Assembly: GCA_048886185.1 (NCBI GenBank)
Contig: JBHLKY010000004.1
Coordinates: forward strand, 1 to 32,000
Direction: 5' to 3'
Source of the DNA: Candidatus Hermodarchaeota archaeon
GTDB lineage: Archaea > Asgardarchaeota > Heimdallarchaeia > Hodarchaeales > Hodarchaeaceae
DNA length: 32,000 nucleotides
Numbering within the stretch: the stretch's first letter is position 1; each line of letters opens with the position of its first letter. The position numbers were made by a program, and so were the translations under genes. The notes under the pieces were generated by a model. The model saw only the letters and a program-made list of their open reading frames with translations, did no database searches and was not told where the DNA came from. This document shows, in pieces, positions 11,838-29,649 of this stretch.

Positions 11838-13175
11838 ATGTCGAAAGATATATTTAGTCAATATGATCCTATAGAAGAGGCACTTCAGGAGGGAATAGAT
11901 CCTGAAGAATATATTATTGGTACTTACATGGTACAACTTGGACCAAGGATGGATCCATGGTTTATAGGAAGAGCTGCTGCCTGTGAGCAGTCAACAGGAA
12001 CTTGGGTACCTGTTCCAGCAAACACACCTGAATTAAGAGCAAAATATGGTGCAAAGGTGATTGGGTTATATGAAGTTCCCTCCTATGAGTTTGAGATTCC
12101 TAAAGGTGTTGAGGAGCGAAATTTTATATATCAAATTGCTTTTCCAATAAAAAATCAAACAGATCAAATTGGCTTGATGTTGACAGCAACAATAGGTAAT
12201 ATTTCAATGGGAGGTAAGCTCAAATTGCTTGATCTTCGTTTCCCTAAACGTTGGACTAAAAACTTTAAAGGTCCAAAATTCGGTATTGCAGGTATTCGTA
12301 GGTTACTCAAAGTTCCCGACCGTCCGTTATTAAATAATATGATTAAGCCATGTAGCGGCTACTCAGCACTCACTGGAGCTCAACTATTCTATTCAGCTGC
12401 TTTAGGGGGATGTGATGTTGTGAAAGATGATGAATTAATTGCTGATATGGACTACAATAAGTTGATTGATAGGGTTCCTCTTATGATGGAGGCAATAGAT
12501 AAAGTACGGGATGAAACTGGAGAGGAAACTCTCTACACAGTAAATATCACAGATAAATTAACTAAGTTAAAAGACAATGCAATAGCTGTTCAAGATGTGG
12601 GGGGTAATGCTTTGATGTTGAATTATTTAGTAGTTGGATTTCCAGCATTACGAATGTTAGCAGAGGATCCAGAAATAAAACTGCCTATTCTTGCTCATAT
12701 GGATTTTGCGGGTGTTTTTTATGAGTCTCCTTACTCTGGAGTCTCCTCGTTTTTAGTAATGGGCAAGCTCGCCCGATTAGCAGGAGCTGATATTGTCGTT
12801 TTTCCAGCTCCCTATGGAAAGGCGCCCTACTTGAAAGAAAAGTATCTTGGTGTTGCTAAAGCTCACCGGTATCGGATGCATAATCTCAAGCCATCATTAC
12901 CAATGCCATCGGGTGGAATTACACCAGGCATGGTTCCAAGAGTTGTACAAGACCTTGGAAGAGATATTATGATTGGTTCAGGTGGTGGCATTCATGCTCA
13001 TCCTGACGGACCTGTTTCTGGAGCGAGAGCCTTCCGTCAAGCTATTGATATATGTATGAAAGATTTAGAAGCTGCAATTGAAGACTTCGAGGATTATGTT
13101 GAGGATCATTCAGAGGAATATCCTGAACTTGCCAAAGCCATGAAGGCTTGGGGTGTATCGGATACACGATTTTAA
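11838..13175 (+). CDS. RuBisCO-like protein (form IV RLP)
   Basis: EQSTGTW, GPKFG, IKP, GGCDVVKDDE, PSGG and GGGIHAHP motifs are present. Positions equivalent to K177, R295 and H327 are substituted (C, M, V). Confidence 0.88.
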   Translation: MSKDIFSQYDPIEEALQEGIDPEEYIIGTYMVQLGPRMDPWFIGRAAACEQSTGTWVPVPANTPELRAKYGAKVIGLYEVPSYEFEIPKGVEERNFIYQIAFPIKNQTDQIGLMLTATIGNISMGGKLKLLDLRFPKRWTKNFKGPKFGIAGIRRLLKVPDRPLLNNMIKPCSGYSALTGAQLFYSAALGGCDVVKDDELIADMDYNKLIDRVPLMMEAIDKVRDETGEETLYTVNITDKLTKLKDNAIAVQDVGGNALMLNYLVVGFPALRMLAEDPEIKLPILAHMDFAGVFYESPYSGVSSFLVMGKLARLAGADIVVFPAPYGKAPYLKEKYLGVAKAHRYRMHNLKPSLPMPSGGITPGMVPRVVQDLGRDIMIGSGGGIHAHPDGPVSGARAFRQAIDICMKDLEAAIEDFEDYVEDHSEEYPELAKAMKAWGVSDTRF

Positions 13176-13201: not shown

Positions 13202-13528
13202 TCAGATTTTAGAAAAAAGTCCTCCTGCTACCGGAGGGAACACTGCTATGACATCACCATCGTTAAGATGAGTCTTAATACCATCTAAGTATTTTATACT
13301 CCTACCATTTCTAAGAATTTGAATCCAGTCCCTAAGCTCATTATAATCATCAAAGATTTTTTCTCTTAAAGATTGATGTTGATTGAATAATGCTTCTAAA
13401 AGCTGGAATACAGTTGCTTTTTCTTCTAATTCAATCTCAATCTCACGTGCATTGGTAATCTTTTTAAAAGAGGCGAAGAGCTTTACTGTTACCTTGATGA
13501 TTCTGTGGGTACCATGTACCTTGTTCAA
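13202..13528 (-). CDS. moaD: MoaD/SAMP-like ubiquitin-fold sulfur carrier
   Basis: VKLFASF start and ILRNGR...LNDGDVIAVFPPVAGG end, followed by five extra residues LFSKI. TTG start. Confidence 0.8.
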   Translation of the reverse strand: MNKVHGTHRIIKVTVKLFASFKKITNAREIEIELEEKATVFQLLEALFNQHQSLREKIFDDYNELRDWIQILRNGRSIKYLDGIKTHLNDGDVIAVFPPVAGGLFSKI

Positions 13529-13547
13529 ATTTTACATCTCACTAGTT

Positions 13548-15239
13548 TTACTCTTCTTCTCTAAGCTTTTTCTTATCAAGTTTCATAACTGGGGTGAGTG
13601 GTAATGAATCTCTAAGCTCAATGTACCTTGGAACAGCATAGGAGGGAAGATTCTCTTTACAATATTGAATTATCTCATCAGGAGTAACCTTATCTTTGTA
13701 ATCCTCCCTTAGAGCTATAAAGGCTTTGATCCTTTCACTACCTGGTCGCTCTGGATCCTGAACTCCAATAACTCCAGCAATACTCACAGCTGGATGGCCA
13801 TGCAATATATCATCTACCGTTTGTGAGTAGACTTTCATTCCACTGACATTAATCATATCTTTAATGCGGTCGACAATATAAAAATAACCATCTTCATCCA
13901 TTTTCGCCACATCCCCAGTTGCTAACCAACCATTCTCCAGTAAACCCTTACCTGCATTTGGCCAATACCCCTTCATTACTTGGGAACCACGAATCCATAT
14001 CTCACCAGGTTCACCAATAGCTGCATCTTCCCCAGTTTCTAGGTTGACAATTCTCACCTCTGTATCAGCAACAGGAATTCCTACTGATCTTTTCACTTTA
14101 GGCATAAATCCTGTTACTTTAGAAAGACCTGATGGATTCATGTGAGTAACTGCACAAGCTTCAGTCATTCCATATCCCTCACTTAATGGTGTACCAACTT
14201 TTTTCTCCCACTTTTCTGCAACATCATTTGGCAGAGCTGCAGCACCAGAAAAGAAGAATATAGGCATCTTTTTTAGATTGGGGTTGTCAAGTAATAACAT
14301 ATAATGGGTTGGTACACCCCCCACGATGAATGGACGATATTTATTGATTATATCAGTAATTAGCAAAAGGTCTCGACCATCAATTAAAAAGCCGCGTAAT
14401 CCCCATGAAATCCCAGCATGCAATAAGAAATGACCTGCTTGATGAAAGATGGGAAGGCAGATTAATGCAGCAGCCTTTCCTTTTATTCCTGCACGTAAAG
14501 GGTGCATCATCCACTGAACTGACTGTATTACGTTTGTTGTAATGTTGTAATGAGTTAACATCGTTGCTTTAGGAATTCCTGTCGTCCCACCTGTGAATGG
14601 GAGTAACGCGATATCCTCTGTTGGATTAATTTCAACTTCGGGAGGATTATTTTCACTTTGTTCAATTAATTCTTCCAACCGATAGAGATTAGCTATATCA
14701 TGTAAATCTACCAATTTAGGTAATGAATAATCTGGGAATATTGGGACAGGAGTATAAATTACATTTTTTAATCTTATATCGTTTTCAATTGCTTTAATTC
14801 TTTCGAGTCGTCTATGTGAACATATAACAGTTTCAGTACCCGATTTTTTAATCTCATATAACACTTCAGGAGTCTTGTGTAAGATACTTAGAGGAACATG
14901 GACCGCTCCCAGTCTCATGATAGCATAATCAGCGATAATAAATTGGGGACAAGAGGGCAGAATTGTCGCGACTCTATCCCCTTTCTCCACTCCTAAACCA
15001 TCAAGTGCTGTTGCTAGTTTGTCTACTTGTAGTTTCAGTTCAGAATATGTTAATTCTGTTCTGTACTCTCCTGCAATGAAGGTACATGCAATATTATCTG
15101 GAAATTCAATTGCAGAATCATCAAGAAACTTATTTACAGGTATTTTTGGATAAGGCTCCATAGTCTTTGGAAGTTTGTAAGGCCCAACCTTATAGCTTTT
15201 CAACCAAGGTTTATCAGCATACGAAATGTTCTCAGTCAA
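13548..15239 (-). CDS. Long-chain fatty acid-CoA ligase (ANL adenylate-forming family)
   Basis: FTGGTTGIPKA AMP-binding loop, EGYGMTEA, GWLATGD, IVDRIKDMINVSG, and a C-terminal catalytic Lys. TTG start after GGTGTGA. Confidence 0.9.
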   Translation of the reverse strand: MTENISYADKPWLKSYKVGPYKLPKTMEPYPKIPVNKFLDDSAIEFPDNIACTFIAGEYRTELTYSELKLQVDKLATALDGLGVEKGDRVATILPSCPQFIIADYAIMRLGAVHVPLSILHKTPEVLYEIKKSGTETVICSHRRLERIKAIENDIRLKNVIYTPVPIFPDYSLPKLVDLHDIANLYRLEELIEQSENNPPEVEINPTEDIALLPFTGGTTGIPKATMLTHYNITTNVIQSVQWMMHPLRAGIKGKAAALICLPIFHQAGHFLLHAGISWGLRGFLIDGRDLLLITDIINKYRPFIVGGVPTHYMLLLDNPNLKKMPIFFFSGAAALPNDVAEKWEKKVGTPLSEGYGMTEACAVTHMNPSGLSKVTGFMPKVKRSVGIPVADTEVRIVNLETGEDAAIGEPGEIWIRGSQVMKGYWPNAGKGLLENGWLATGDVAKMDEDGYFYIVDRIKDMINVSGMKVYSQTVDDILHGHPAVSIAGVIGVQDPERPGSERIKAFIALREDYKDKVTPDEIIQYCKENLPSYAVPRYIELRDSLPLTPVMKLDKKKLREEE

Positions 15240-15349
15240 GATTCACACCACTCTGTATAAGGAACGAACCTTTTTCTTATTCCTAGTAGTTACTACATTA
15301 AAAATCACTAAACATTTATAATTAACTCTCATAATACTCAATCAATGAT

Positions 15350-16231
15350 ATGAAGCAAAAGATATTTCCCTTCAGAGAATGGTCATTTCTTCATCGTGCA
15401 TTTTATTGTTTTGCCAGAGCGATTGTACCCCGTTGGCCCCGATTTTTCTTTAACTTTGACATTTATGGCGTAGAAAATATTCATAAACTCCCCGAAGGAG
15501 TACCTGTAATATTCTGCGGAAATCATCAATCTCATCTTGATTCTATTCTATTTGCATCTGCAATCGTAAAACCTTACGGTCCTAGATTGTTCTTGGCATT
15601 TATGGCGTCAGGAAAAGCTATGGTTGAAAACAAATTCTTTGGATTAACTCACTATCTTGGTGCATTTCCCGTTTTTAAAGAAGATCCAAAACCCGCATTA
15701 TCTACTACGGTTAAACTCTTGAAACATGGTTATGCTGTGTATATTTCTCCTCAGGGAAAACGAGTTGGCCGTACGCCCTTTCATGATTTTCACAATTTAG
15801 TGCAAGAAGGTCGTACAGGTGTTGGACGAATAATTCTGAAAACCAATGGAAAAGTTCCTATCGTTCCGTTCTATCTTCATGGAGCGTATGAGGCGCTGAG
15901 ATCTGGACAGTTTTTACCGAGATTTAAAGCTAATCTTTCAATTCGAATTGGAAAACCTTTAGTCTTTAAAGAATATACTAGGTCTCAAAGGTGGAAAGAA
16001 TCTGATCCTGATTTTTTTCCTACTGCAAGAGAAATTGTGGATAAGATAATGTGGTCTATTCGTTTTTTAATGTTAATCGAAGAGAAATATTATTTCGATT
16101 TAGTCGAAAAAGTAACTAAAGCTCCTCTTGAGAGAATCCCTATTCCCTCATATAAGTCGAGTTTCAATTGGTTTTTACGAAAAACTACTTTACTACAGCG
16201 TAAACAACTTCAAAAGATGTTAGAAACTTAG
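15350..16231 (+). CDS. Lysophospholipid/glycerolipid acyltransferase (PlsC-like)
   Basis: NHQSHLD catalytic HX4D, LGAFPV block II, SPQGKR block III (variant of PEGTR), VPIVP block IV. Confidence 0.85.
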   Translation: MKQKIFPFREWSFLHRAFYCFARAIVPRWPRFFFNFDIYGVENIHKLPEGVPVIFCGNHQSHLDSILFASAIVKPYGPRLFLAFMASGKAMVENKFFGLTHYLGAFPVFKEDPKPALSTTVKLLKHGYAVYISPQGKRVGRTPFHDFHNLVQEGRTGVGRIILKTNGKVPIVPFYLHGAYEALRSGQFLPRFKANLSIRIGKPLVFKEYTRSQRWKESDPDFFPTAREIVDKIMWSIRFLMLIEEKYYFDLVEKVTKAPLERIPIPSYKSSFNWFLRKTTLLQRKQLQKMLET

Positions 16232-16248
16232 GACGCCATAATCTAGAG

Positions 16249-18117
16249 CTAAGGATTTAATTCCGTTATTAACCAATCTAATGCTAATTCTTGAAGTTTG
16301 GCTGGAGTCGGTATTCCATCATTATTCCATCCTCTATTTGTGTAATAAGCATCTAGAAGAGGCTCCAGATCTACAATATGTCCTTTCGCAGGGCCCTCAG
16401 GCATAGGTTCTTCCAAAAATCGTATTGGAAGAGTATCATCGGCTCTGGTTAAGCCTTCCCTAATATTATAGGCTCTTTGAAGATTAAAAATCCTTTCACC
16501 TGTTTTTCTAAAATCAGCCTCAGTGAAGTCTTTCCATCCATAAAGGGTGGCAATCAATGTTGCCCAATCCTCTCCTGTAAGTACCATTCCCATGAACTTA
16601 CATCCTCCTATAGAGTCAAAAACTCCAAAAGCATCCTCATAATCCTTGAGTATCCTAGTATCCTCGGGGGTCGCTTCAAGGTCATCACTAAGTTCTCCAT
16701 CAACAAGAGTAAAGGGTAAAGATAAAAACGTGGGTCCTTCGATAAAAGATGTCATGTGGTCTCCTCCACGATTTGCTGTAGCAAATCCAACTCCTGTTAT
16801 CTTAGCTGCTCTACTGTCATATGCTGGGAGCTCGAGACCTTTGACATGCATAGCAAATTTTTCAGATCCTTGGCCTAATTTTTCAGACATGACCTTTGTC
16901 CCTTCAGCTAATAAGTTTCCAAGTTTTCCTTCTCTCTTGGCAATTCTATTGACAAGCTCTACCATAACATCTGTATTACCAAAATTAACATCCAATCCAT
17001 CAGTATCAGTTAGGATTCCTTTTTCATAACACTCCATCGCGAAAGCTATTGTGGCACCTGTGGATATTGAGTCCAATCCGTATTCGTTACAGAGAAAATG
17101 AGCGTAAGTAATTGCTTCTAAGTTATCGATGTCACACATACTACCAAGAGAACAGAGTGATTCGTACTCTGGCCCTTCCCCCTTGCTGGCATAAGTACCT
17201 TCCTTAATTTCAGTGATTCGTCCACAATGAATGGGACATGCAAAACATGGTTTTCTCTCAACGAGAATTTTATCATTGATTGCCTCACCATTTATTTTCT
17301 CTGCTTCTTTAAAGATCCCAATTTGAAAGTTTCTAGTAGGGAATCCCCCCTTTTCATTAACTAGATCCAGCATTGCAGCAGTTCCAAAAACCTCTAAAGT
17401 CATTTTCAATAAGCTCTGGTTGACCCAATCGAACCGTTTCTTTGCTTCCTCTTTATATTTCTCTGAATCTGCAACAATCACCTTTGCTGAGCCCCGTGAG
17501 GCGATCGCTTTTAATCTTTTTGATCCCATAACGGCTCCTAATCCACATCTTCCAGCAGCTCTCCCCCAGTTTTCTTCGTTCGCATCATTCATTATTGCTG
17601 CAAACTTTACTAGATTTTCTCCTCCTATCCCTATACAAGCGATATTAAATTTCCCGCCAAGTTCTTCTCTTATCAGTTTTGTTGTTTCTGAGGTATTCTT
17701 GCCCCAAAGATGAGTGGCATCCCTTATTTCAGCTTTCCCTTCATCTGTTACAAGATATACTGGTTTATCTGAAACTCCCTCAAAAATAACTCCATCAAAA
17801 CCTGATCTTTTGAGATCTCGTCCCCAAAATCCACCAGAGTTCGCATGTCCCCAAAATTGAGTAAGAGGAGATTTCGCAACTACTGAATATCGTCCTGTAC
17901 TTGGAGATGAAGTACCAGTCATTGCTCCAGTCATGAAAATAAGCTTATTCTCAGAGCTCAACGGATCTATTCCTGCTTTGACTTCATCAAAAAGATATTT
18001 TGTAGCCAATCCAGCTCCTCCTAAGAACATCTTAAGAGTTTCATCATCTGGAAATTCTTCTGTTATCGTTCCAGTTGATAAATTGATTCTTAATATTTTA
18101 CCCATATAACCATACAT
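16249..18117 (-). CDS. aor: Tungsten-dependent aldehyde:ferredoxin oxidoreductase
   Basis: MYGYMGKILRINLS start, KSPLT, AAGRCGLGAVMGSKRLKA, CFACPIHC plus a distal Cys as 4Fe-4S ligands, and the YGLDSIS pterin motif. Confidence 0.93.
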   Translation of the reverse strand: MYGYMGKILRINLSTGTITEEFPDDETLKMFLGGAGLATKYLFDEVKAGIDPLSSENKLIFMTGAMTGTSSPSTGRYSVVAKSPLTQFWGHANSGGFWGRDLKRSGFDGVIFEGVSDKPVYLVTDEGKAEIRDATHLWGKNTSETTKLIREELGGKFNIACIGIGGENLVKFAAIMNDANEENWGRAAGRCGLGAVMGSKRLKAIASRGSAKVIVADSEKYKEEAKKRFDWVNQSLLKMTLEVFGTAAMLDLVNEKGGFPTRNFQIGIFKEAEKINGEAINDKILVERKPCFACPIHCGRITEIKEGTYASKGEGPEYESLCSLGSMCDIDNLEAITYAHFLCNEYGLDSISTGATIAFAMECYEKGILTDTDGLDVNFGNTDVMVELVNRIAKREGKLGNLLAEGTKVMSEKLGQGSEKFAMHVKGLELPAYDSRAAKITGVGFATANRGGDHMTSFIEGPTFLSLPFTLVDGELSDDLEATPEDTRILKDYEDAFGVFDSIGGCKFMGMVLTGEDWATLIATLYGWKDFTEADFRKTGERIFNLQRAYNIREGLTRADDTLPIRFLEEPMPEGPAKGHIVDLEPLLDAYYTNRGWNNDGIPTPAKLQELALDWLITELNP

Positions 18118-18204
18118 TCTGAAAAATCTCCAATAAAAAGTTATATTTCAACTTTTTATCTTTTTAATTTTTCCTAGATGTTCAATTTATTTAGCTATTG
18201 GAAG

Positions 18205-18274
18205 ATTTGCTAATATTAATCCACAGGAGTAACTCTTAAATTATATCTTTATAATTAGTATATTTACTAATATT
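18205..18274. promoter_or_regulatory. Candidate operator in the divergent aor / SCP2-adh promoter
   Basis: Inverted repeat ATTAGTA-N4-TACTAAT (18254-18271). Direct repeat ATTT(G/A)CTAATATT at 18205-18217 and 18262-18274. Confidence 0.35.
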
Positions 18275-18336
18275 GGATGGAAATAGAGTTAAAAACCTAT
18301 TGAAAGTCGAATGAGTATTTTAGGAGAACTAAAAAC

Positions 18337-18777
18337 ATGAACCCAGATGAAAAAATCGTGTTTGGGGAACAAGAATGGCTAGATGCATATGTGAATAGTA
18401 TTAATGGAAGTGAGGCCTACGCACAAGCAGCTAAAGATTGGGAAGGTGACTTTGTGTTTGTGGTAACTCCAGATGGGACTGGTAATTTAACTGAAGAACG
18501 GAGAATGTACGTAGATCTATGGCATGGTAAGTGTCGTGAAGCATATTATGTAACTCCCGAGAAATCAGCTCCAGAAAGTGTACAATATATTTTTGGTGGT
18601 AAATATGGAGATTGGCTAAAAGTGTTCGATGGGAAACTTGATCCATTGAAAGGAGTTCTTCAAAGAAAATTTAAAGTTGAATGTAGTCCGAAAGCAATGG
18701 CCAAGATGCTACGCGCAGTGAAAGCTTCACAAGAACTAGTAAAATGTACACAGATGGAGAATGTTGTTTATCCTTAA
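18337..18777 (+). CDS. SCP2 sterol/lipid-binding domain protein
   Basis: WLDAYVNSIN...AAKDWEGDFVF, DLWHGKC, and GKLDPLKGVLQRKFKV, typical of the SCP2 C-terminal part. Confidence 0.75.
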   Translation: MNPDEKIVFGEQEWLDAYVNSINGSEAYAQAAKDWEGDFVFVVTPDGTGNLTEERRMYVDLWHGKCREAYYVTPEKSAPESVQYIFGGKYGDWLKVFDGKLDPLKGVLQRKFKVECSPKAMAKMLRAVKASQELVKCTQMENVVYP

Positions 18778-18808
18778 CAAACTATGAATAATCTGGGAGA
18801 AATAGAGT

Positions 18809-20005
18809 ATGTGGGATTTTACCAGTCCAAGGAAGGTAATTTTTGGCGAAGATGCTCTAGAATATCTTTCTGAAAAATCATTCAAACATGTATTTATTAT
18901 TACTGATCCTACAATGAAAAAGTTGCATCTTGCTAAAGTGGAAGATCAGTTGAAGCAAAGTAATACAAAAATAACTGTTTTTGATGAAATTCCTGGTGAA
19001 CCTACCTTACAGATTGTACAAAAGGGAGCCACAGTTTTAGTTAAAACTCAACCTGATGTTATTATTGCATTGGGTGGGGGTAGTGTTATTGATTCAGCTA
19101 AAGGAATGTGGGCTATATGGGCTAATTATGATGAAGGCCTTGATGCAATTGAGGGTCTTGATCCAATAGGAGACTTAAATCTTAGGGAGAAAACGAGATG
19201 CGTTCTAATTAACATTCCTACAACGAGCGGTACAGGCAGTGATGCTACTTGGGCAACGGTTCTCACTGACGAATCAAATGATGTAGATCGGAAGGCTTCG
19301 TTTGCTAATCGTGAACTCGTTGGAGATGTAATTATTTTGGATCCTGTTTTTACAAAAACTATGCCTTCCCATCTTCGGGCAGGCACAGGGATGGATGCAC
19401 TGTGTCATTCAATTGATGGGTACCTTTCTGATTGGCGGAATGACTTCTCAGATGCTTTACTAAGACACGCTTTTAAACTCATTTGGGAAAATCTATCAAT
19501 TGCATACGAACAGAGTAAATCTGGAGAAGCTGATACAAAGATACTGGAGAAACTTCATAATGCTGCTACCATGGCTGGGTGGGGTTTTGGTAATTCGCAA
19601 ATCATCTTATCTCATTCGTTAGCCCACAGTGTAGGAGCTGTATTTAATATTCCTCATTCTGTTTGCATTGGAACCATGTGTTGGTATTCACTAATGTACA
19701 ATAAGAATACTGATCCACAAAGAATCGCTGATTTAGCTCGTTTAGTCGGTTTGGAAGGAACTTCAGATGAGGAAATCGCAACCAAGTTGGTTTGTGAGTT
19801 TAAAGAGCTTCTCATTAAACTCGAATTACCACTTTCAATTAAGGACATGAAAGTCACTAAGGAACAATACGAAGCAAAATGTAATAGTCTGATTGATTAT
19901 GCATTGAATGATTCAGGAACCCTTTCTAATCCTAGAACTCTGGATTTTGAGGATTTTGAGAAAATTTTTGAATATGCTTTTTTGGGAAAAGAGGTCGATT
20001 TTTAA
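18809..20005 (+). CDS. Iron-containing alcohol dehydrogenase
   Basis: GGGSVIDSAK, IPTTSGTGSD, GMDALCH, and HSLAH...IPH metal ligands. Starts 31 nt after the SCP2 gene. Confidence 0.92.
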   Translation: MWDFTSPRKVIFGEDALEYLSEKSFKHVFIITDPTMKKLHLAKVEDQLKQSNTKITVFDEIPGEPTLQIVQKGATVLVKTQPDVIIALGGGSVIDSAKGMWAIWANYDEGLDAIEGLDPIGDLNLREKTRCVLINIPTTSGTGSDATWATVLTDESNDVDRKASFANRELVGDVIILDPVFTKTMPSHLRAGTGMDALCHSIDGYLSDWRNDFSDALLRHAFKLIWENLSIAYEQSKSGEADTKILEKLHNAATMAGWGFGNSQIILSHSLAHSVGAVFNIPHSVCIGTMCWYSLMYNKNTDPQRIADLARLVGLEGTSDEEIATKLVCEFKELLIKLELPLSIKDMKVTKEQYEAKCNSLIDYALNDSGTLSNPRTLDFEDFEKIFEYAFLGKEVDF

Positions 20006-20066: not shown

Positions 20067-23045
20067 TTAGTCTCTTCTAAATCTTTCTGGAAGTTTAAGT
20101 TTTCCTTTTCTGTGTAAATAGACCACAACTGCTACTGAACCACCTCCACCGATAGCTAAAACTGCTCCAAAGAGGATCAGTTCGAGTGGAAGTCCAGGTG
20201 CGGTTCCAGCGTTCACGAATTCAATGATATGGGGATCAGATTGGGAGGTTAAGTATAGGTTATCAGTTGCATAGATTATAAAGGTTAAATTGCCACTCTT
20301 CCGATTGACTTTGACATCAAAGTAGTAGAAGCCTGTTTCCTCATCAAATATCATCTCCTGGACTTTCCATTCATTGGTTTCCTCAAATCGATATCCAATG
20401 GTACAATTGAGAACTGTTCCATCAATGTCTGTCACATTGGCCCAAATACGAATGGTGTTTGTTCCGTTCATATCAAGGGGAGAAGGATACGGAAAGCCTA
20501 TGACTTCAATGAATGGCGCGAGTCCGTGGGTATATCTAACTGTATAGATCGTTGTTTCCGATGAAAGACCTGAAAAATCAAAGGCACGAACCATATAATA
20601 CAATGTCCCATTTTCAGTTGGGAGTGGGACATCAAAATAATATAGTCCTGTTGTACTGTTCAGTATCATAGAACCAACAGACCAATAATCGCTTTTAGAA
20701 AACTTATAATAAGTTTCCGCTTCTACTATACCCCCTTGATCATAAATATCAGCAGAAACTTGGATATACTGTTTTCCTGCAAGATCTATTGGTGAACTAA
20801 TCGCTATAACATTTATACTTGGTACTAAACCATCAGAGTAGTAATGAAAAATTGAACTATTTTCAGAGTTCCAAAGATTATCTGTCATGGTTATGAAAAA
20901 ATACACCATGGTATCATTAACTGAGGCAGGAATTACTGCTATATATTGGTAACCAAGCGGAATACTGTGATGAATGAGCTCAATTTCATATCTTGTAATC
21001 GCACCAGAAAATAGCTCTGAAAAATCTTGAATAACTAAAGTAAAATTCCCTTTAGTAAATGCTGCTTCCGATATACCTAAACGAGTTATCTCGATATCTC
21101 TTCTAATATCAGTTGGGCCAGGTTCACGATCAAAAAGCATGAATTGTCTTCCATCATCTAACTTAAGCCAGATACGTAGGTCTGTAGGCATTTCGTGGGT
21201 AATTTCAAATGTTAAAATTGCAGTATCTACTGGACCAGTACGAATAATTTCAAGAGGGAATGAACTAACCGCATTATCTTCAATATAGTGAAGATTGGTA
21301 GCTCTGAAAGTCTCTTGATGATCAACTAGAATTTGGTAATTGATAGTGGCTGCCCCGATAGCACTCCAAGATATTTGATCATCAAAACTATACCAGAGCA
21401 CAGGTTGCATCGAACCAGAATAATCGGAGGAATTAAAAAGAACGAGAGCATTTGAATAATTACTTATAATTGCAGGATATATAGAGTATAAATCTAGGTT
21501 AGGTCCCGTTCCATCAGCGTAGTAAATGTTTACAAAAGTTGTTGTATCATTATTCCCGTAAAAATCCTCCGTTTCAAAGTAGTACTCCACAAAAGCTGTC
21601 TCATTTGTTGCAGGTAAAGTTACATTAAATGTTGATGTGTCAATATTAGGATCCGTAAGCGAAGTGTTTGTCATTTCCATCTTTTTGAACGTGGTTCCAT
21701 TTGGCATGGAATAATAGATATTAACAGACTTAATACCACCTGAATCTTCAACTGTAATGTCGATATTGACTTGGGAGGTAGATAAAGTAATATTTTGGAG
21801 GCCAGGATAACTTTCAATGGCAATATCTGTAACTCGTGGCGCCAAACTGTCAATGTCAACATAGCGAAGGGGGGATCTTCCTTCACGTCCTTTGATACCA
21901 CCCACTCTATCAGAAACATTAGCCCGAAGTTCCATTGTAGTTTCCACTTCTAATAGACTAAAAGCTGGAATAGCTGCCGTAAAATAGTGAGTATTGGCAA
22001 ATTCACCAAACCAATCCATATTGATTATTGACCAATTAGTATCACCAACAAACCTGTAATATACAATTCCACTGTTCGTATCTACTGTACCAGCTCCATC
22101 TGGATCTATGACGGAAACATTCACATTTAAATCATCGTATGCACTAAGAACAACCCTTGGTGATTCTACTGGGTCTATGATTGTAACAATGGGTGTAAAA
22201 TCCATAAGGAACGTGTAATGGTCAGATACTGAACTTTGGTTTAGATCATCATAGGCTTCGAAATAATATTCAACGAATGTATCATCATTGGCTGCAGGAA
22301 TAGTCCAGCTATATTCCTCGAATTGAAGAAGAATGTCATCAAATCTCGGAATACGGGGAATGAGGTCGTCATATGATACTGCGAAAAAGCTATACCCAAG
22401 AGTAGGAGTTGTACTTTGGTATGTCTCGGTACCTAAATCATTTGAGTCATCCAGACCATAACCACCCGCCTCATGAACAATTTGCCATTCACCAGTTGTG
22501 AAATTTCTTGCACTGATGATAACATATACTAGGGCTCTGTTTACCCCAATTGTTACATCTATACTAGATACTACTGAAGCATCATAGGTGTACTCTCCAT
22601 ATCGCCATAGCGTAGGAGAAGAAGTTTTTACACCGGTTTCAGTTACATACCCTACTTCTCCGATTAAGTCAAAACCAAGATCAACTGTATCAATGATGGG
22701 TTGTGTAGTTGAGCCAACTGCAGTATTACTGAATAAAGTCTCATTTATAGAAGTATACTTCCAAAATAATGTAGCATTCTGGACGCCATCAATATCTTCA
22801 ATCGAAACAGCCACATCCACATCTTCATCGCTATCAGGATTCGGATTACTTAAAGTTGGTGTGTCAATGACGGGCCCACTAGTATCGCTAACAGAAAAAA
22901 CTGTACGTAATTTTTCAGGAGTTCTAGGTAAAGAAAAATCTGAAGTTTCAGGCCTAATTGAGTGATTTGTATTGGAAAAAACAACAGCCAGACAAAATAT
23001 TAAAATAACAGAAATTATCAAATTGAATCTTTTCATCTCTTTCAA
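20067..23045 (-). CDS. Large cell-surface protein with about six Ig-like repeats, a proprotein-convertase P-like domain and a C-terminal TM anchor
   Basis: Signal peptide. Repeats end in YYxxAxD-like strands (YYFEAYD, YYFETED, YYMVRAFD, FIIYATD). P-domain-like ITHEMPTDLRIWL...GNFTLVIQD. Gly-rich TM helix followed by a basic tail. Confidence 0.8.
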   Translation of the reverse strand: MKEMKRFNLIISVILIFCLAVVFSNTNHSIRPETSDFSLPRTPEKLRTVFSVSDTSGPVIDTPTLSNPNPDSDEDVDVAVSIEDIDGVQNATLFWKYTSINETLFSNTAVGSTTQPIIDTVDLGFDLIGEVGYVTETGVKTSSPTLWRYGEYTYDASVVSSIDVTIGVNRALVYVIISARNFTTGEWQIVHEAGGYGLDDSNDLGTETYQSTTPTLGYSFFAVSYDDLIPRIPRFDDILLQFEEYSWTIPAANDDTFVEYYFEAYDDLNQSSVSDHYTFLMDFTPIVTIIDPVESPRVVLSAYDDLNVNVSVIDPDGAGTVDTNSGIVYYRFVGDTNWSIINMDWFGEFANTHYFTAAIPAFSLLEVETTMELRANVSDRVGGIKGREGRSPLRYVDIDSLAPRVTDIAIESYPGLQNITLSTSQVNIDITVEDSGGIKSVNIYYSMPNGTTFKKMEMTNTSLTDPNIDTSTFNVTLPATNETAFVEYYFETEDFYGNNDTTTFVNIYYADGTGPNLDLYSIYPAIISNYSNALVLFNSSDYSGSMQPVLWYSFDDQISWSAIGAATINYQILVDHQETFRATNLHYIEDNAVSSFPLEIIRTGPVDTAILTFEITHEMPTDLRIWLKLDDGRQFMLFDREPGPTDIRRDIEITRLGISEAAFTKGNFTLVIQDFSELFSGAITRYEIELIHHSIPLGYQYIAVIPASVNDTMVYFFITMTDNLWNSENSSIFHYYSDGLVPSINVIAISSPIDLAGKQYIQVSADIYDQGGIVEAETYYKFSKSDYWSVGSMILNSTTGLYYFDVPLPTENGTLYYMVRAFDFSGLSSETTIYTVRYTHGLAPFIEVIGFPYPSPLDMNGTNTIRIWANVTDIDGTVLNCTIGYRFEETNEWKVQEMIFDEETGFYYFDVKVNRKSGNLTFIIYATDNLYLTSQSDPHIIEFVNAGTAPGLPLELILFGAVLAIGGGGSVAVVVYLHRKGKLKLPERFRRD

Positions 23046-26045: not shown

Positions 26046-26423
26046 ATGGTAAACGAGGATTTACTTAGACAATTGTTTGTAAAGAAATCGCTAAAGAATA
26101 ATGAGAAAGGATTCCAACTTCAAATGAAGAATTCGATAAGTGATGCCACAATAATTGCTCCTATCAAACTTGAGATTAGTGGTGAGACTATTGAAAAAGA
26201 AAAATTTAAGGATTTTATCATTGATCTCGATGGAGTGAAGATCAATAATAAAGATATCAATGAGCAAAGTCCTGCGAAGTTCTCTGTTAAATCTACCGCT
26301 ACATTACTTTTTAAGCGGGACAATCCGTTGCCACAAGAGAAATATAAGATCAGATTTACAAAATTATTAACAGAAGAGTACGGAGACCTCCCTTTTGGGA
26401 TGAAAGAACGAGTACGTGATTAG
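26046..26423 (+). CDS. Hypothetical protein (125 aa), probably a soluble beta-sandwich
   Basis: Clean ORF with AAGGA upstream, alternating hydrophobic beta pattern, and a T-rich terminator-like tract downstream. Confidence 0.75.
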   Translation: MVNEDLLRQLFVKKSLKNNEKGFQLQMKNSISDATIIAPIKLEISGETIEKEKFKDFIIDLDGVKINNKDINEQSPAKFSVKSTATLLFKRDNPLPQEKYKIRFTKLLTEEYGDLPFGMKERVRD

Positions 26424-26639
26424 ATTACCCCTCATCTCGGGCCTAATAATTTTTCTTTTTTTCTAATAATATTAATCTCTTTTCTCATTACTTTTTACCT
26501 ATTCCTTCCTTTATGGCTGAATTTCTTCGTCATTCTTGAATGTATCAAGTAAATTGTGATTTTTTGAAAAGAAAAGTTTGTTAAAGAAAAATTCTTAATC
26601 GTCCCATTTCTTTATTGTATAAATTAATCTAAAGGCTGA

Positions 26640-28019
26640 ATGATGAAAATGGAGCATCAAAAACGACTTTTCAAAGATGATGAATTGATTAGGTGGATCA
26701 CAGACATAACTGATGAGGAGATAAATGAGGTTCATAAAAAAAGTTTAGTTCCTTTTTATGATCAGCTATTTGTTGAGGGATATGGTTCCTATTTAAAAGA
26801 TCAGACGGGTAAAGAATTTTTAGATTGTACTGCTCAAGCATGGACATGTAATATTGGTTTTGCAAATCCTGATGTTGCTTTTGCTGTGAGTGAACAATTA
26901 AAAAGGCTGACTCATGTACGATATGGCTTTCCAACAATCCCTCGAATAAAATTCATTCATAAATTGGTCAGTATTACACCTGGAAATTTAAAGAAGGTCG
27001 CGGTTAATGCCATGGGCGGGGGAGCAGCTATCGAAGCTGCATTACGATTGGCTATGATTAATAAACCTGATGCAGAACATTTTTATACGTATACACGAGG
27101 GTATCACGGAAGCTCACTTGCAACAATGACCCTGTCCACACGATTCGCGGGAGTAACCCGTTTTCGCTCTTGGGGATTCGATCGTGTTTCAAAAATTCCT
27201 TTTCCATACTGTTATCGTTGCCCCATGGGACAAGAGGATGAAAAAACATGTCATCTTGAGTGTCTAGAATTAGCAAAACATATGATCGAATATGGTTCAG
27301 TTGACAAAGTGTGTGGAATATTAATGGAGCCACTTCAAGCACCAGGGGGTCATATCCCTGCTCCTAAAGAATATCTTAAGGAGCTTAGGTTTTTTACCCA
27401 AAAAAATGATATTTTTTTAATTTTTGATGAGTCACAAGTTTTCACTCGCATTGGCTACTGGTTCTCTTCAGATTTTTACGAAGGAGTCGTTCCTGACATT
27501 ACTTGTCTTACAAAGGCTATTGGGGGCGGATTGCCTATGGGGGTCACCATTGCACGAGATGATTTAACTGGTTTTAATGCAGCGGAAGAACATACAACAT
27601 TTGGTGCTAATCCCCTTATGTTTGCCTCTGGTTTGGTTTTTCTCAATTACATTGAAAAAGCTGACCTATTAAAAAACACTCGGGATCAGGGAAACTATCT
27701 TACATCCAAATTGAAGCAATTACAGAAAAAATATGATGTAATTGGGGATATCCGATGTCCAGGGTTATTTATTGGTGTTGAATTTGTCAAGGATCCTGAA
27801 ACTAAAGAACCTGCAAATGCTCTTTGCTCTGATCTCATTGAGGAAGCTATGAATCAAGGAGTGATTTTTGGTCACTCTGCACCAATATCCTCAGATACTG
27901 GAAAACTCTTCAGAAATGTCCTTAAGATTAAACCACCACTCATAATCAACCGTGAAGATTCTGACCAAATTTTAACTGTTTTTGAATCAGCACTTGAAGA
28001 AGCTATAGATTATATGTAA
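26640..28019 (+). CDS. Class-III PLP-dependent aminotransferase-fold enzyme, possibly a phospho-lyase
   Basis: GYHGSS, EPLQAPGG, FDESQ, PDITCLTKAIGGGLP (PLP lysine), HTTFGANP, and C-terminal NVLKIKPPL. Confidence 0.88.
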   Translation: MMKMEHQKRLFKDDELIRWITDITDEEINEVHKKSLVPFYDQLFVEGYGSYLKDQTGKEFLDCTAQAWTCNIGFANPDVAFAVSEQLKRLTHVRYGFPTIPRIKFIHKLVSITPGNLKKVAVNAMGGGAAIEAALRLAMINKPDAEHFYTYTRGYHGSSLATMTLSTRFAGVTRFRSWGFDRVSKIPFPYCYRCPMGQEDEKTCHLECLELAKHMIEYGSVDKVCGILMEPLQAPGGHIPAPKEYLKELRFFTQKNDIFLIFDESQVFTRIGYWFSSDFYEGVVPDITCLTKAIGGGLPMGVTIARDDLTGFNAAEEHTTFGANPLMFASGLVFLNYIEKADLLKNTRDQGNYLTSKLKQLQKKYDVIGDIRCPGLFIGVEFVKDPETKEPANALCSDLIEEAMNQGVIFGHSAPISSDTGKLFRNVLKIKPPLIINREDSDQILTVFESALEEAIDYM

Positions 28020-28035
28020 GATAAGCTTTCAATTA

Positions 28036-29649
28036 TTGAAGTTGATTGATTTGACTGAAAGAAAATTCCTAGCATATGATTTGGGGACGACTGCAACCAA
28101 GGCCGTCCTCATTTCTAACCAAATAGAATTTATTGACTCTTCAGTTGAAGAGTATAAAACTTACTTTCCTCAGCTCGGATATGCTGAGCACAATCCAGAG
28201 GATTGGTGGCGTACTATTGTATCAACCACAAAAAAGCTTCTTGAAAAAACCAGTACGCCTCCTGATGAGATTGGAGCGTTAACTTTCTGTTCCCAGATGC
28301 AAGGGTTAACCCCTGTAGATGAACAGGGCACCCCATTGATGAATTGTATGATATGGTTGGATGCCAGGGGGTCAGAGTATCTGTATAAACTATGGCCATG
28401 GCCACGAGTCATGGGATATTCTCCATATCGGTTATTTCTAAAATTTTTAAAAATAACAGGAGGTGCTCCTGGGCTTACAGGTAAAGATCAAATTCCAAAA
28501 ATTCTTTGGTTAAAAAATAAGCATCCAGAGATCTATAATAAAACCTACAAGTTTTTAGATGTGAAAGATTATGTGATCTTTCGATTAACTGGGAAAATGG
28601 TAACTAGTACTGATTTTGCGTATGTTTGGTGGCTTCTTGATACAAGGAAGAAAGAAGGAATACCAAGGAATGAATGGTCTGAAACTTTGTGTAAAATGTA
28701 CAAAATAGATATGAAAAAACTCCCAGAAGTTGAAAAACCCACTGAAATTATTGGCTCCTTAACCGATGAGGCAGCAAGTACGCTTGGTCTTCTAAAAGAA
28801 ACGCCTATTGTCTGCGGTGTAGGAGATCTGACAGCTGCGGCAATTGGTTCTGGTGCGGTACTAGATAGTGAGTTACATTGTCAAATAGGAACTTCTGGAT
28901 GGGTTGCAGGTCATGTATCTGATAGAAAGGTAGATATAAATCATTATACTGGATGTGTTGGATCAGCTTTTCCTGATAAATTCTATTTGGCTGTAGCACA
29001 TCAAGAAATTGCTGGAGCATGTCTTGAATGGGTAAAGAAAAACATTATTTATTATAAAGAAGAATTACTAGCAAAAGAGAAGAAACAAGTCTATGAGATC
29101 TTTGATGAGTTAGTATCTAGTTGCAACCCTGGAGCCAAAGGTAAGGGAGGGACTTATCTAATGTTCTTACCTTGGTTTGCAGGGGAGAGAGCTCCATTAG
29201 ATGACGATCATGTTCGCGGTGGATTGATGAATCTTTCACTGGATCATGACAGGAGGCATTTACTTCGTGCGGTTTTTGAAGGTGTTGCTCTTAATGCAAG
29301 ATGGGCTTTAGAGACCGTTGAAAACCTGTACTCTCCTGTACATTCGCTTTCTATTATTGGAGGAGGAGCCAAATCTGATGTTTGGTGTCAGATTTATGCT
29401 GATGTGCTAAATAGAACCATTCACCGAGTAAAAGATCCACAGGAAGCTGGTGCATTAGGAGCAGCCATTGTAGCGAAAATGGCTTTGAGTGAACTCAAAG
29501 ATATATCTGAAATAAAAGACTACATTCACTTTGATCTTAAGTTTACTCCCAATCCTGACCATCGTGATCTATATGACCATCTGTACAAGGAGTTTAAGAA
29601 TCTCTATAAACAAAATAAAAAATGGTTTAAACGTATGAACACACTTTGA
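28036..29649 (+). CDS. FGGY-family carbohydrate kinase (xylulokinase-like)
   Basis: AYDLGTTATKA, EHNPEDWW, CSQMQG, IWLDAR, GVGDLTAA, LPWFAGERAP, IIGGGAKS. TTG start 16 nt after the upstream stop. Confidence 0.92.
   Translation: MKLIDLTERKFLAYDLGTTATKAVLISNQIEFIDSSVEEYKTYFPQLGYAEHNPEDWWRTIVSTTKKLLEKTSTPPDEIGALTFCSQMQGLTPVDEQGTPLMNCMIWLDARGSEYLYKLWPWPRVMGYSPYRLFLKFLKITGGAPGLTGKDQIPKILWLKNKHPEIYNKTYKFLDVKDYVIFRLTGKMVTSTDFAYVWWLLDTRKKEGIPRNEWSETLCKMYKIDMKKLPEVEKPTEIIGSLTDEAASTLGLLKETPIVCGVGDLTAAAIGSGAVLDSELHCQIGTSGWVAGHVSDRKVDINHYTGCVGSAFPDKFYLAVAHQEIAGACLEWVKKNIIYYKEELLAKEKKQVYEIFDELVSSCNPGAKGKGGTYLMFLPWFAGERAPLDDDHVRGGLMNLSLDHDRRHLLRAVFEGVALNARWALETVENLYSPVHSLSIIGGGAKSDVWCQIYADVLNRTIHRVKDPQEAGALGAAIVAKMALSELKDISEIKDYIHFDLKFTPNPDHRDLYDHLYKEFKNLYKQNKKWFKRMNTL

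Follow-up and report, generated by a model that had tools for sequence, protein, structure and literature searches.

The closest described relatives of the locus analyzed here are routes in which a tungsten-containing aldehyde:ferredoxin oxidoreductase (AOR) is paired with an alcohol dehydrogenase (ADH). Such ferredoxin-linked AOR and ADH routes are known from Pyrococcus furiosus, Thermococcus and acetogenic clostridia, in which the reduction of acids to alcohols by the two enzymes has been established. The anaerobic phenylalanine pathway of Aromatoleum aromaticum leads from a thiamine pyrophosphate (TPP)-dependent decarboxylase through an AOR to a phenylacetate-CoA ligase, and the alkJ, alkH and alkK genes of Pseudomonas putida encode an alcohol dehydrogenase, an aldehyde dehydrogenase and an acyl-CoA synthetase that convert hydrophobic substrates in three steps from alcohol through aldehyde and acid to acyl-CoA. 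We analyzed a six-gene cluster encoding a MoaD-type sulfur carrier, an acyl-CoA ligase, a PlsC-like acyltransferase, an AOR, an SCP2-fold protein and an iron-type alcohol dehydrogenase (Fe-ADH). The cluster occupies positions 13202-20005 of the window, that is, the whole 32,000-nt stretch at positions 1 to 32,000 of contig JBHLKY010000004.1 of Candidatus Hermodarchaeota archaeon (GCA_048886185.1). The source genome (G000) is an Asgard metagenome-assembled genome (MAG) of 4.84 Mb, and homologues of its genes bear NCBI labels such as Thorarchaeota or Promethearchaeota.

The AOR of the cluster had its best PDB match in P. furiosus AOR (1aor, 551 bits, full length), followed by FOR (355 bits) and WOR5 (232 bits), which places it by sequence in AOR proper, of the broad-range P. 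furiosus type. The cluster thus shares with the P. furiosus-type and acetogen routes the tungsten AOR subfamily, the ADH partner, the link to ferredoxin and a MoaD-like gene adjoining the AOR. In contrast to those routes, it has an SCP2-fold protein as a near-constant third partner, and an acyl-CoA ligase is coupled to its AOR, and in two species fused with it, so that the oxidative direction is implied. AOR oxidation followed by CoA activation of the acid is common to the cluster and the Aromatoleum pathway, and TPP enzymes lie beside related gene sets in Bathyarchaeia and Theionarchaea; however, the Aromatoleum AOR has extra subunits, and its pathway is not known to have an SCP2 partner, an Fe-ADH partner or a fusion. 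The three steps of the alk system are also alike, whereas the alk enzymes are unrelated and aerobic (a flavin-dependent ADH and an NAD-dependent aldehyde dehydrogenase), the window using an Fe-ADH and a ferredoxin-linked tungsten enzyme. We conclude that the locus is a variant of known AOR/ADH systems and that it is composite, not a conserved six-gene lipid pathway.

The explanation that we favor, with somewhat better than an even chance of being right, is a conserved ferredoxin-linked route from alcohol to acyl-CoA with an SCP2-fold helper, to which a clade-specific PlsC-like gene has been added. In an old and widespread module, Fe-ADH would oxidize an alcohol to the aldehyde in an NAD(P)-linked step and the tungsten AOR would oxidize the aldehyde to the free acid in a ferredoxin-linked step, and the role of the SCP2-fold protein is probably to hold or pass on a substrate of low solubility. 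The FadD/4CL-type ligase to which AOR is coupled in this Thorarchaeota-type genus would then convert the acid to acyl-CoA, and the MoaD-type carrier for the pterin cofactor of AOR would be co-transcribed with both, the net route running from alcohol through aldehyde and acid to acyl-CoA. In a few close species, the present one among them, a member of an Asgard-specific PlsC-like family was inserted between AOR and ligase, which most likely O-acylates a lipid-like acceptor from acyl-CoA. Three features make the locus noteworthy: the AOR-ligase fusion found in relatives, the triad of SCP2-like protein, Fe-ADH and AOR, and a Thorarchaeota PlsC-like family with ligase and hydrolase partners.

The AOR-ligase-MoaD core

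Domain calls were made with Pfam gathering scores and NCBIfam curated cut-offs on the open reading frames (ORFs) of the window, and all six genes of a first-pass annotation were confirmed in position, domain content and spacing. The AOR gene (16249..18117, minus strand) encodes 622 amino acids (aa) with AFOR_N (259 bits) and AFOR_C (456 bits) domains. The ligase gene (13548..15239, minus strand) encodes an ANL-family acyl-CoA ligase of the FadD/4CL type with 563 aa (AMP-binding, 268 bits, and AMP-binding_C). After a gap of 19 nt, it is followed by the last gene of the ligase operon (13202..13528, minus strand), which encodes a MoaD/SAMP1-type small sulfur-carrier (ubiquitin-like) protein of 108 aa (ThiS, 62 bits; NF041918 SAMP1, 95 bits with a cut-off of 60; TIGR01687 moaD_arch, 86 bits). 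The MoaD/SAMP1 protein scored above its own NCBIfam cut-off, whereas the ligase, the PlsC-like protein and Fe-ADH scored below every equivalog cut-off. For the ligase, the best NCBIfam matches were long-chain-fatty-acid-CoA ligase models, all under their cut-offs (at best 373 bits against 705, PRK08314). Its best PDB matches were Archaeoglobus fulgidus FadD-1 (3g7s, 203 bits) and feruloyl/4-coumarate ligases, and acetyl-CoA synthetase gave a partial match (113 bits). The sequence of the ligase is therefore FadD/4CL-like rather than acetyl-CoA-synthetase-like.

The genus was compared across 22 genomes, which are related and often fragmentary MAGs, and orthology was assigned by tblastn identity together with synteny. 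The five genes for MoaD, ligase, AOR, SCP2-like protein and Fe-ADH were co-conserved in the genus, with MoaD, ligase and AOR on one strand (MoaD<-ligase<-AOR) and SCP2-like->Fe-ADH diverging from them. The divergent arrangement of AOR and SCP2-like genes, with Fe-ADH next after the latter, was seen in 13 of the 15 genomes having an AOR orthologue; in the window the two genes are separated by 219 nt (18118..18336, read from the sequence). The ligase gene adjoined AOR directly in 8 species and was fused with it in two. AOR, ligase and MoaD ran in one direction, 32-111 nt apart and without a PlsC-like gene, in G002, G004, G011, G012, G013 and G020. In G019 and G021, AOR and ligase formed a single ORF of about 1,220 aa, with MoaD next after it. 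Both fusion ORFs (L154:2494-6162, 1222 aa, in G019; L155:1608-5096, 1162 aa and ending at the contig edge, in G021) hold AFOR_N, AFOR_C, AMP-binding and AMP-binding_C. The linkers of 37-38 aa differ in sequence and are open in frame in both species, whereas the other two frames contain 3-6 stops. Such a natural fusion is evidence for a functional link between the oxidation of the aldehyde and the activation of the acid.

Within the genus, 12 or more species kept the AOR-ligase pairing. It recurred in two Bathyarchaeia loci, where AOR->ligase lies beside SCP2->Fe-ADH pairs of another lineage; AOR shares 71% identity with that of the window in one of them (the other is only partly sequenced), and the ligases share 65-66%. 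G000 holds 13 AOR-family paralogues and about 11 ANL-ligase genes, and the chance of at least one AOR-ligase pair within 3 kb in one genome is about 0.16. Because the pairing is retained across so many species, fused in two and seen again in Bathyarchaeia, it is not a product of chance. The tie between the redox half (Fe-ADH, AOR and MoaD) and the ligase, which had first been read from the shared operon of ligase and MoaD, was thus borne out and extended by the AOR->ligase->MoaD operon and by the fusion. No published description of an AOR-ligase fusion was found in a literature search, and the fusion points to an apparently undescribed ferredoxin-linked conversion of alcohols or aldehydes to CoA thioesters, which bears on anaerobic carbon turnover in sediments.

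MoaD orthologues follow the ligase in at least 11 species and directly follow AOR in Bathyarchaeia, and all three MoaD-like genes of G000 lie within 3 kb of an AOR (contigs C4, C12 and C15). As MoaD-like genes lie close to AORs in both G000 and Bathyarchaeia, a role of MoaD in supplying the pterin cofactor of AOR fits. The C-terminal GG of the window's protein is present and followed by five residues (...VAGG+LFSKI; window 13202-13225). Orthologues in eight other loci stop at GG or at GG plus 1-2 residues, and the tail occurs in this genome only; the idea that GG+LFSKI marks a regulated precursor or a feature of the cluster was rejected, as the orthologues are without it.

AORs work on free acids and aldehydes. 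We infer the oxidative direction, because a CoA ligase joined to AOR in one protein would be useful only where AOR delivers the acid that is to be activated. The first-pass annotation had also offered the reverse, in which AOR would reduce free fatty acids with reduced ferredoxin and Fe-ADH would then form fatty alcohols for wax esters or ether lipids. This reading can appeal to the established acid-to-alcohol reduction mentioned above, to the many ferredoxin-linked enzymes of the organism, including the 13 AORs, and to a structural lead described below, in which SCP2-like proteins are fused to wax-ester synthase/DGAT. However, it fits poorly with an AOR that acts on free acids and is fused to a ligase: the ATP-consuming CoA ligase fused to or directly downstream of AOR would be without a role and would compete for the acid, and neither a wax-ester synthase nor an ether-forming enzyme was found in or near the cluster among Pfam and NCBIfam family matches. 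We regard it as highly improbable.

The SCP2-like, Fe-ADH and AOR module

The SCP2-like gene (18337..18777, plus strand) encodes a stand-alone SCP2-fold protein of 146 aa (PF02036, 28 bits with a cut-off of 21.3), and the Fe-ADH gene (18809..20005, plus strand) starts 31 nt downstream of it. The SCP2-like protein is a member of a distinct subfamily, in whose alignment the WEGDF and DLWHG motifs were invariant. Its structural model had a predicted local distance difference test score (pLDDT) of 93.8, and the top Foldseek matches were all SCP2 proteins. The best of them was TT1886 of Thermus thermophilus (2cx7/1wfr; template modeling (TM) score 0.76-0.85, 28-30% identity), a structural-genomics protein that belongs to the same subfamily (100 bits to the profile) and shares WEG and DLWHG. 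A literature search on TT1886 found nothing relevant, as did one on SCP2 together with AOR and ADH, and an SCP-2 homologue has been mentioned, but not studied, in a cultured Lokiarchaeon (PMC12139934).

More than 555 copies of the SCP2-like protein were found in species-representative genomes, from Asgard groups, Bathyarchaeia, Thermoplasmata, Nitrososphaeria and Chloroflexota. Among the best 80 loci, Fe-ADH was present in 65 and AOR in 46, usually in the order SCP2->Fe-ADH->AOR. When only the 32 loci with flanks of 5 kb or more on each side were considered, Fe-ADH was no more than 5 kb away in 29 loci and no more than 0.5 kb away in 22, and AOR was no more than 5 kb away in 23. The arrangement SCP2-like->Fe-ADH, often with AOR following, recurs across Asgard archaea, Bathyarchaeia and Chloroflexota, and separate look-ups returned the same trio in Bathyarchaeia, Nezhaarchaeota and Lokiarchaeota. 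A Theionarchaea locus also holds the three families, in a looser arrangement with a zinc-type ADH between them. The SCP2-Fe-ADH pair recognized in the window is therefore a real and widely conserved one. Its breadth together with AOR makes the triad of interest for anaerobic carbon turnover in sediments. A complex prediction for Fe-ADH and the SCP2-like protein scored 0.01 and was not used as evidence in either direction.

In Thorarchaeota, a second type of cluster was observed (L116, L119, L121, L141 and others), with the order SCP2-like->NMO/FabK-like FMN enzyme->Fe-ADH->AOR->PAP2 lipid-phosphatase-like gene. Genes for PHP-domain proteins and regulators are often near it, and it seems not to occur in G000.

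Fe-ADH (398 aa; Fe-ADH, 138 bits, and ADH_Fe_C, 134 bits) has both the N- and C-terminal domains, the GGGS motif and the conserved Asp and His residues of iron-type (group III) enzymes. GGGS (G89-G91, S92), D196, H269, H273 and H283 were invariant in 21 SCP2-linked homologues, and the last four residues are presumably the metal ligands, by analogy with FucO. The best PDB match was the ADH domain of AdhE (3zdr, 233 bits), followed by FucO and DhaT. With these as the nearest relatives of Fe-ADH, and with the broad-range P. furiosus enzyme as the nearest relative of AOR, the long-chain substrates suggested at first are not supported.

We lean toward a medium-chain aliphatic, branched or aromatic alcohol or aldehyde as the substrate, rather than one of C2-C3 or of membrane length. 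A hydrophobic substrate is suggested by the constant SCP2 partner, the FadD/4CL-type ligase, the NMO/FabK-like and PAP2 genes of the second cluster, and the PlsC insertions. It is rather unlikely, in our estimate, that the module instead serves as a redox valve or detoxifier for short, polar or reactive aldehydes produced by catabolic genes nearby, for example acetaldehyde, lactaldehyde or semialdehydes, with a non-lipid role of the SCP2 fold and with the PlsC-like gene as an unrelated neighbor. Such a function would agree with the best solved relatives of Fe-ADH, which are the AdhE domain, lactaldehyde reductase and 1,3-propanediol dehydrogenase, and with several neighborhoods: a Lokiarchaeal locus has an FGGY kinase and a fusion of 2-hydroxyacid dehydrogenase and class-II aldolase beside SCP2/Fe-ADH/AOR, and in Bathyarchaeial loci the neighbors include TPP enzymes, a LarA-like protein and a glyoxalase. 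The invariant polar WEGD and DLWHG motifs are, moreover, unusual for a passive lipid carrier, and fusions of class-II aldolase and SCP2 offer a structural lead. On the other hand, the ligase is not of the acetyl- or propionyl-CoA-synthetase type, all characterized SCP2 domains bind hydrophobic ligands to our knowledge, and the recurrent pairing of PlsC-like and ligase genes described below argues against a random position of the former.

A further point for the small-aldehyde function comes from a group of genes in the flank of the window (26046..29649, plus strand), assigned by family matches to an HMG-CoA_red_N-like small protein, a class-III pyridoxal phosphate (PLP) enzyme and an FGGY kinase. 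These genes directly follow Fe-ADH in G002, G013 and G011, and their genus-wide linkage to the cluster survives a rearrangement in G019. Outside the genus, an FGGY kinase lies beside the module in two Lokiarchaeal loci and one Theionarchaea locus, whereas the PLP-enzyme gene does so in none. As strong evidence for a small polar substrate, the FGGY kinase and PLP-enzyme genes were therefore down-weighted, because their linkage to the module is almost confined to the genus.

The SCP2-like protein was also followed into possible fusions. Structural matches in a protein atlas included twins fused to other enzymes, namely a wax-ester synthase/DGAT in Chloroflexota (TM 0.84), a class-II aldolase in Omnitrophota (TM 0.72) and a MaoC dehydratase. 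A sequence search for longer, fused forms returned none that scored, which is weak evidence, and a hidden Markov model search of five Chloroflexota genomes found the stand-alone copy and no fused form. The fusions with wax-ester synthase/DGAT and with aldolase remain leads, because no sequence-level link could be shown.

Several points weigh against the favored explanation. The nearest solved relatives of Fe-ADH act on C2-C4 substrates, and the neighbors of the module vary by lineage (TPP enzymes, LarA-like protein, glyoxalase, FGGY kinases and class-II aldolase), which fits small polar aldehydes. AOR reactions are reversible in vitro. Neither AOR nor the ligase is co-transcribed with the PlsC-like gene, which converges with the former and diverges from the latter. 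The counts of syntenic loci are not independent, given that they come from incomplete MAGs of related species, and the functions assigned to all six genes derive from sequences and models.

The PlsC-like gene and its family

The PlsC-like gene (15350..16231, plus strand) encodes an acyltransferase-like protein of the AGPAT/LPLAT superfamily with 293 aa (PF01553, 47.2 bits with a cut-off of 23). It meets the AOR gene convergently across 17 nt and is separated from the divergent ligase gene by 110 nt (15240..15349, direct reading of the sequence). This region contains an A/T-rich TTTATAA box about 30 nt upstream of the PlsC-like start, which may be its promoter.

In the genus, G000 and G008 are the only genomes in which the gene lies between AOR and ligase. 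In the complete genome of G010, PlsC, ligase and MoaD are kept and AOR is lost, and no SCP2-like gene was found in that genome. In G012, whose AOR is 87% identical to that of the window, AOR and ligase are 50 nt apart without PlsC. In G014 and G017 (L070), a different PlsC paralogue occupies the same junction in the opposite orientation; its identity to the window's copy is about 50%, whereas the neighboring genes share 79-88%. A maximum-likelihood tree resolved three paralogue clades. The copies of the window, G008 and G010 formed a clade of their own (100/100), and the G014 copy fell in a different one, in which G008 and G010 hold separate members. The PlsC-like gene is thus a late, clade-specific insertion and not a fixed part of a pathway. 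Accordingly, the proposal that the six genes form one conserved unit does not hold, PlsC being absent from the site in G002, G004, G011, G012, G013, G019, G020 and G021, an outcome that the first-pass annotation had itself named as a refutation. The five-gene core is conserved in the genus and the SCP2/Fe-ADH/AOR module more widely, but the PlsC-like gene at this site is not.

The assignment of the protein to PlsC-like acyltransferases was upheld by its fold and by the HX4D motif. The model had a pLDDT of 90.5, and its best fold match was Thermotoga maritima PlsC (5kym, E 6e-9), followed by GPAT1, squash GPAT and PatA. It shares with 5kym motif I (HX4D), motif IV and two N-terminal helices. 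It differs from 5kym in having 17% identity, an altered motif III and an additional C-terminal helical extension of about 55 aa. Among 25 family members, N58-H59-x-S61-H62-L63-D64 (NHxSHLD, motif I) and P170 and P173 (VPxxP, motif IV) were invariant, as was motif III, P134-Q135-G136-x-R138 (PQGxR), in which Q stands in place of the canonical E; the canonical motif III is (F/I)PEG(T/G)R.

The PlsC equivalog model TIGR00530 gave 27.4 bits, far under its cut-off of 102.95, and the best NCBIfam match was the Aas model. A PDB sequence search with the protein gave no match at E<=1. A profile search of 1.84 billion representatives returned 15 matches at E<=1e-30 and then generic PlsC proteins of about 210 aa, and the distant matches included bacterial fusions of AMP-binding, PP-binding and acyltransferase domains. 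The nearest outsiders were other Asgard LPLAT proteins, followed by bacterial PlsC. On these searches, the family is small and restricted to Asgard archaea. Aas (acyl-ACP synthetase/2-acyl-GPE acyltransferase) and the myxobacterial ElbD fusions likewise have an ANL enzyme working with a PlsC-type acyltransferase, whereas the window has separate genes and no carrier-protein domain. In ElbD, the reductase is an NAD(P) domain whose substrate is an activated acyl group, in contrast to the AOR of the window, which would act on a free acid.

The PlsC-like family was found in all of the 21 other genomes of the genus that were searched, mostly in several copies, and an ANL ligase was adjacent in 8 of 20 loci, across three paralogue clades. 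In five species, a PGAP1/LCAT/lipase-like alpha/beta hydrolase of about 515 aa is divergent from a co-oriented pair of PlsC-like and ANL-ligase genes (L048, on G000 contig C25 at about 48.2-52.6 kb, and L042, L045, L047 and L052). G010 (L037) has a paralogue of the hydrolase 0.8 kb away from its PlsC of the window type, and another PlsC paralogue adjoins genes for an esterase and for an ABC transporter of the MacB type. Such contexts suggest a turnover of acyl esters through release, activation and re-esterification. Coupling of the ligase to PlsC is plausible, because the family elsewhere sits in trios of lipase-like hydrolase, PlsC and ligase, and the presence of two different PlsC paralogues at one junction suggests that a position beside the ligase is favored.

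The same observations can be taken further, to a dedicated lipid route of all six genes in this clade. Fe-ADH and AOR would oxidize long-chain alcohols or aldehydes carried by SCP2, the ligase would activate the acids, and the PlsC-like enzyme would esterify them to give acyl lipids (ester or chimeric) for membranes or storage. The SCP2 fold with a FadD-type ligase, the PlsC fold with HX4D, the recruitment of PlsC paralogues twice to the AOR/ligase junction and the association of the family with lipase-like hydrolases and ligases would all suit such a route. So would a PlsY homologue in the genome, the FabK/NMO-like reductase and PAP2 lipid phosphatase in the second SCP2-Fe-ADH-AOR cluster of other Thorarchaeota, and, as a lead only, the SCP2-like twin fused to wax-ester synthase/DGAT in Chloroflexota. 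We nevertheless judge the dedicated route clearly unlikely. Most of the genus has no PlsC in the cluster, the close relative G012 among them, and the complete G010 genome keeps PlsC with ligase and MoaD after the loss of AOR and without an SCP2-like gene that could be found. In addition, the gene has the opposite orientation and its own putative promoter region, the relatives of Fe-ADH and AOR are short- to medium-chain enzymes, and only archaeal-type lipids have so far been detected in the one cultured Lokiarchaeon analyzed (as cited in PMC13400652).

With respect to the lipid background, G000 encodes the PlsY (G3P_acyltransf) homologue on contig C18 (78364-78942, 81 bits), five PF01553 genes and two glycerol-1-phosphate-dehydrogenase-like genes, and a search for GpsA in G000 gave only weak Rossmann-domain matches. 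Both families of bacterial-type acyltransferases are thus present in G000. PlsC and PlsY homologues of Asgard archaea have already been published (PMC6431249; PMC6737245; PMC13400652), and surveys of Thorarchaeota reported PlsY, with PlsC scarce or absent (PMC6431249; PMC6737245).

Asgard archaea are the closest known relatives of eukaryotes, and whether they can produce acyl lipids with ester linkages is one of the open questions of the lipid divide. The locus leads to a divergent PlsC-like family that stands repeatedly beside acyl-CoA ligases and lipase-like hydrolases and thus provides concrete candidates for the formation or remodeling of ester lipids. In its most far-reaching form, which we hold to be very unlikely, the module, with an acyl-CoA ligase coupled or fused to it in Thorarchaeota and some Bathyarchaeia, would carry out an undescribed and widespread anaerobic oxidation of long-chain or isoprenoid alcohols with the SCP2-fold protein as a dedicated delivery subunit, and in this clade the resulting acyl-CoA would be esterified by the PlsC-like family. 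If this were true, some Asgard archaea would use scavenged alcohols and fatty acids to make or remodel acyl lipids with ester linkages.

Neighboring genes

On the MoaD side, the cluster is flanked by a gene for a RuBisCO-like protein (RLP; 11838..13175, plus strand), which is convergent with MoaD (RuBisCO_large, 151 bits; MtnW-like, 345 bits, under the cut-off of 409). This flank is conserved synteny in the genus, and the RLP is probably part of a separate pathway. The gene order agrees with an ADH/AOR/ligase block wedged into a set of RLP, kinase and aminotransferase genes. In two Bathyarchaeia loci (L085 and L094), an RLP with 54% identity to that of the window lies just past SCP2->Fe-ADH...AOR->MoaD, and because of these loci the neighborhood of RLP and AOR block is not confined to the genus.

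A scan of positions 13202-20005 against Rfam matched no family. On the Fe-ADH side, two large ORFs (20067-23045 and 23207-25723, both minus strand; 992 and 838 aa) match no Pfam or NCBIfam family. They appear to be insertions into an older synteny, because G002, G013 and G011 do not have them between Fe-ADH and the HMG-CoA_red_N-like gene. A doublet histone is also encoded in the window, and an Arf-type GTPase is encoded in the syntenic region of a relative.

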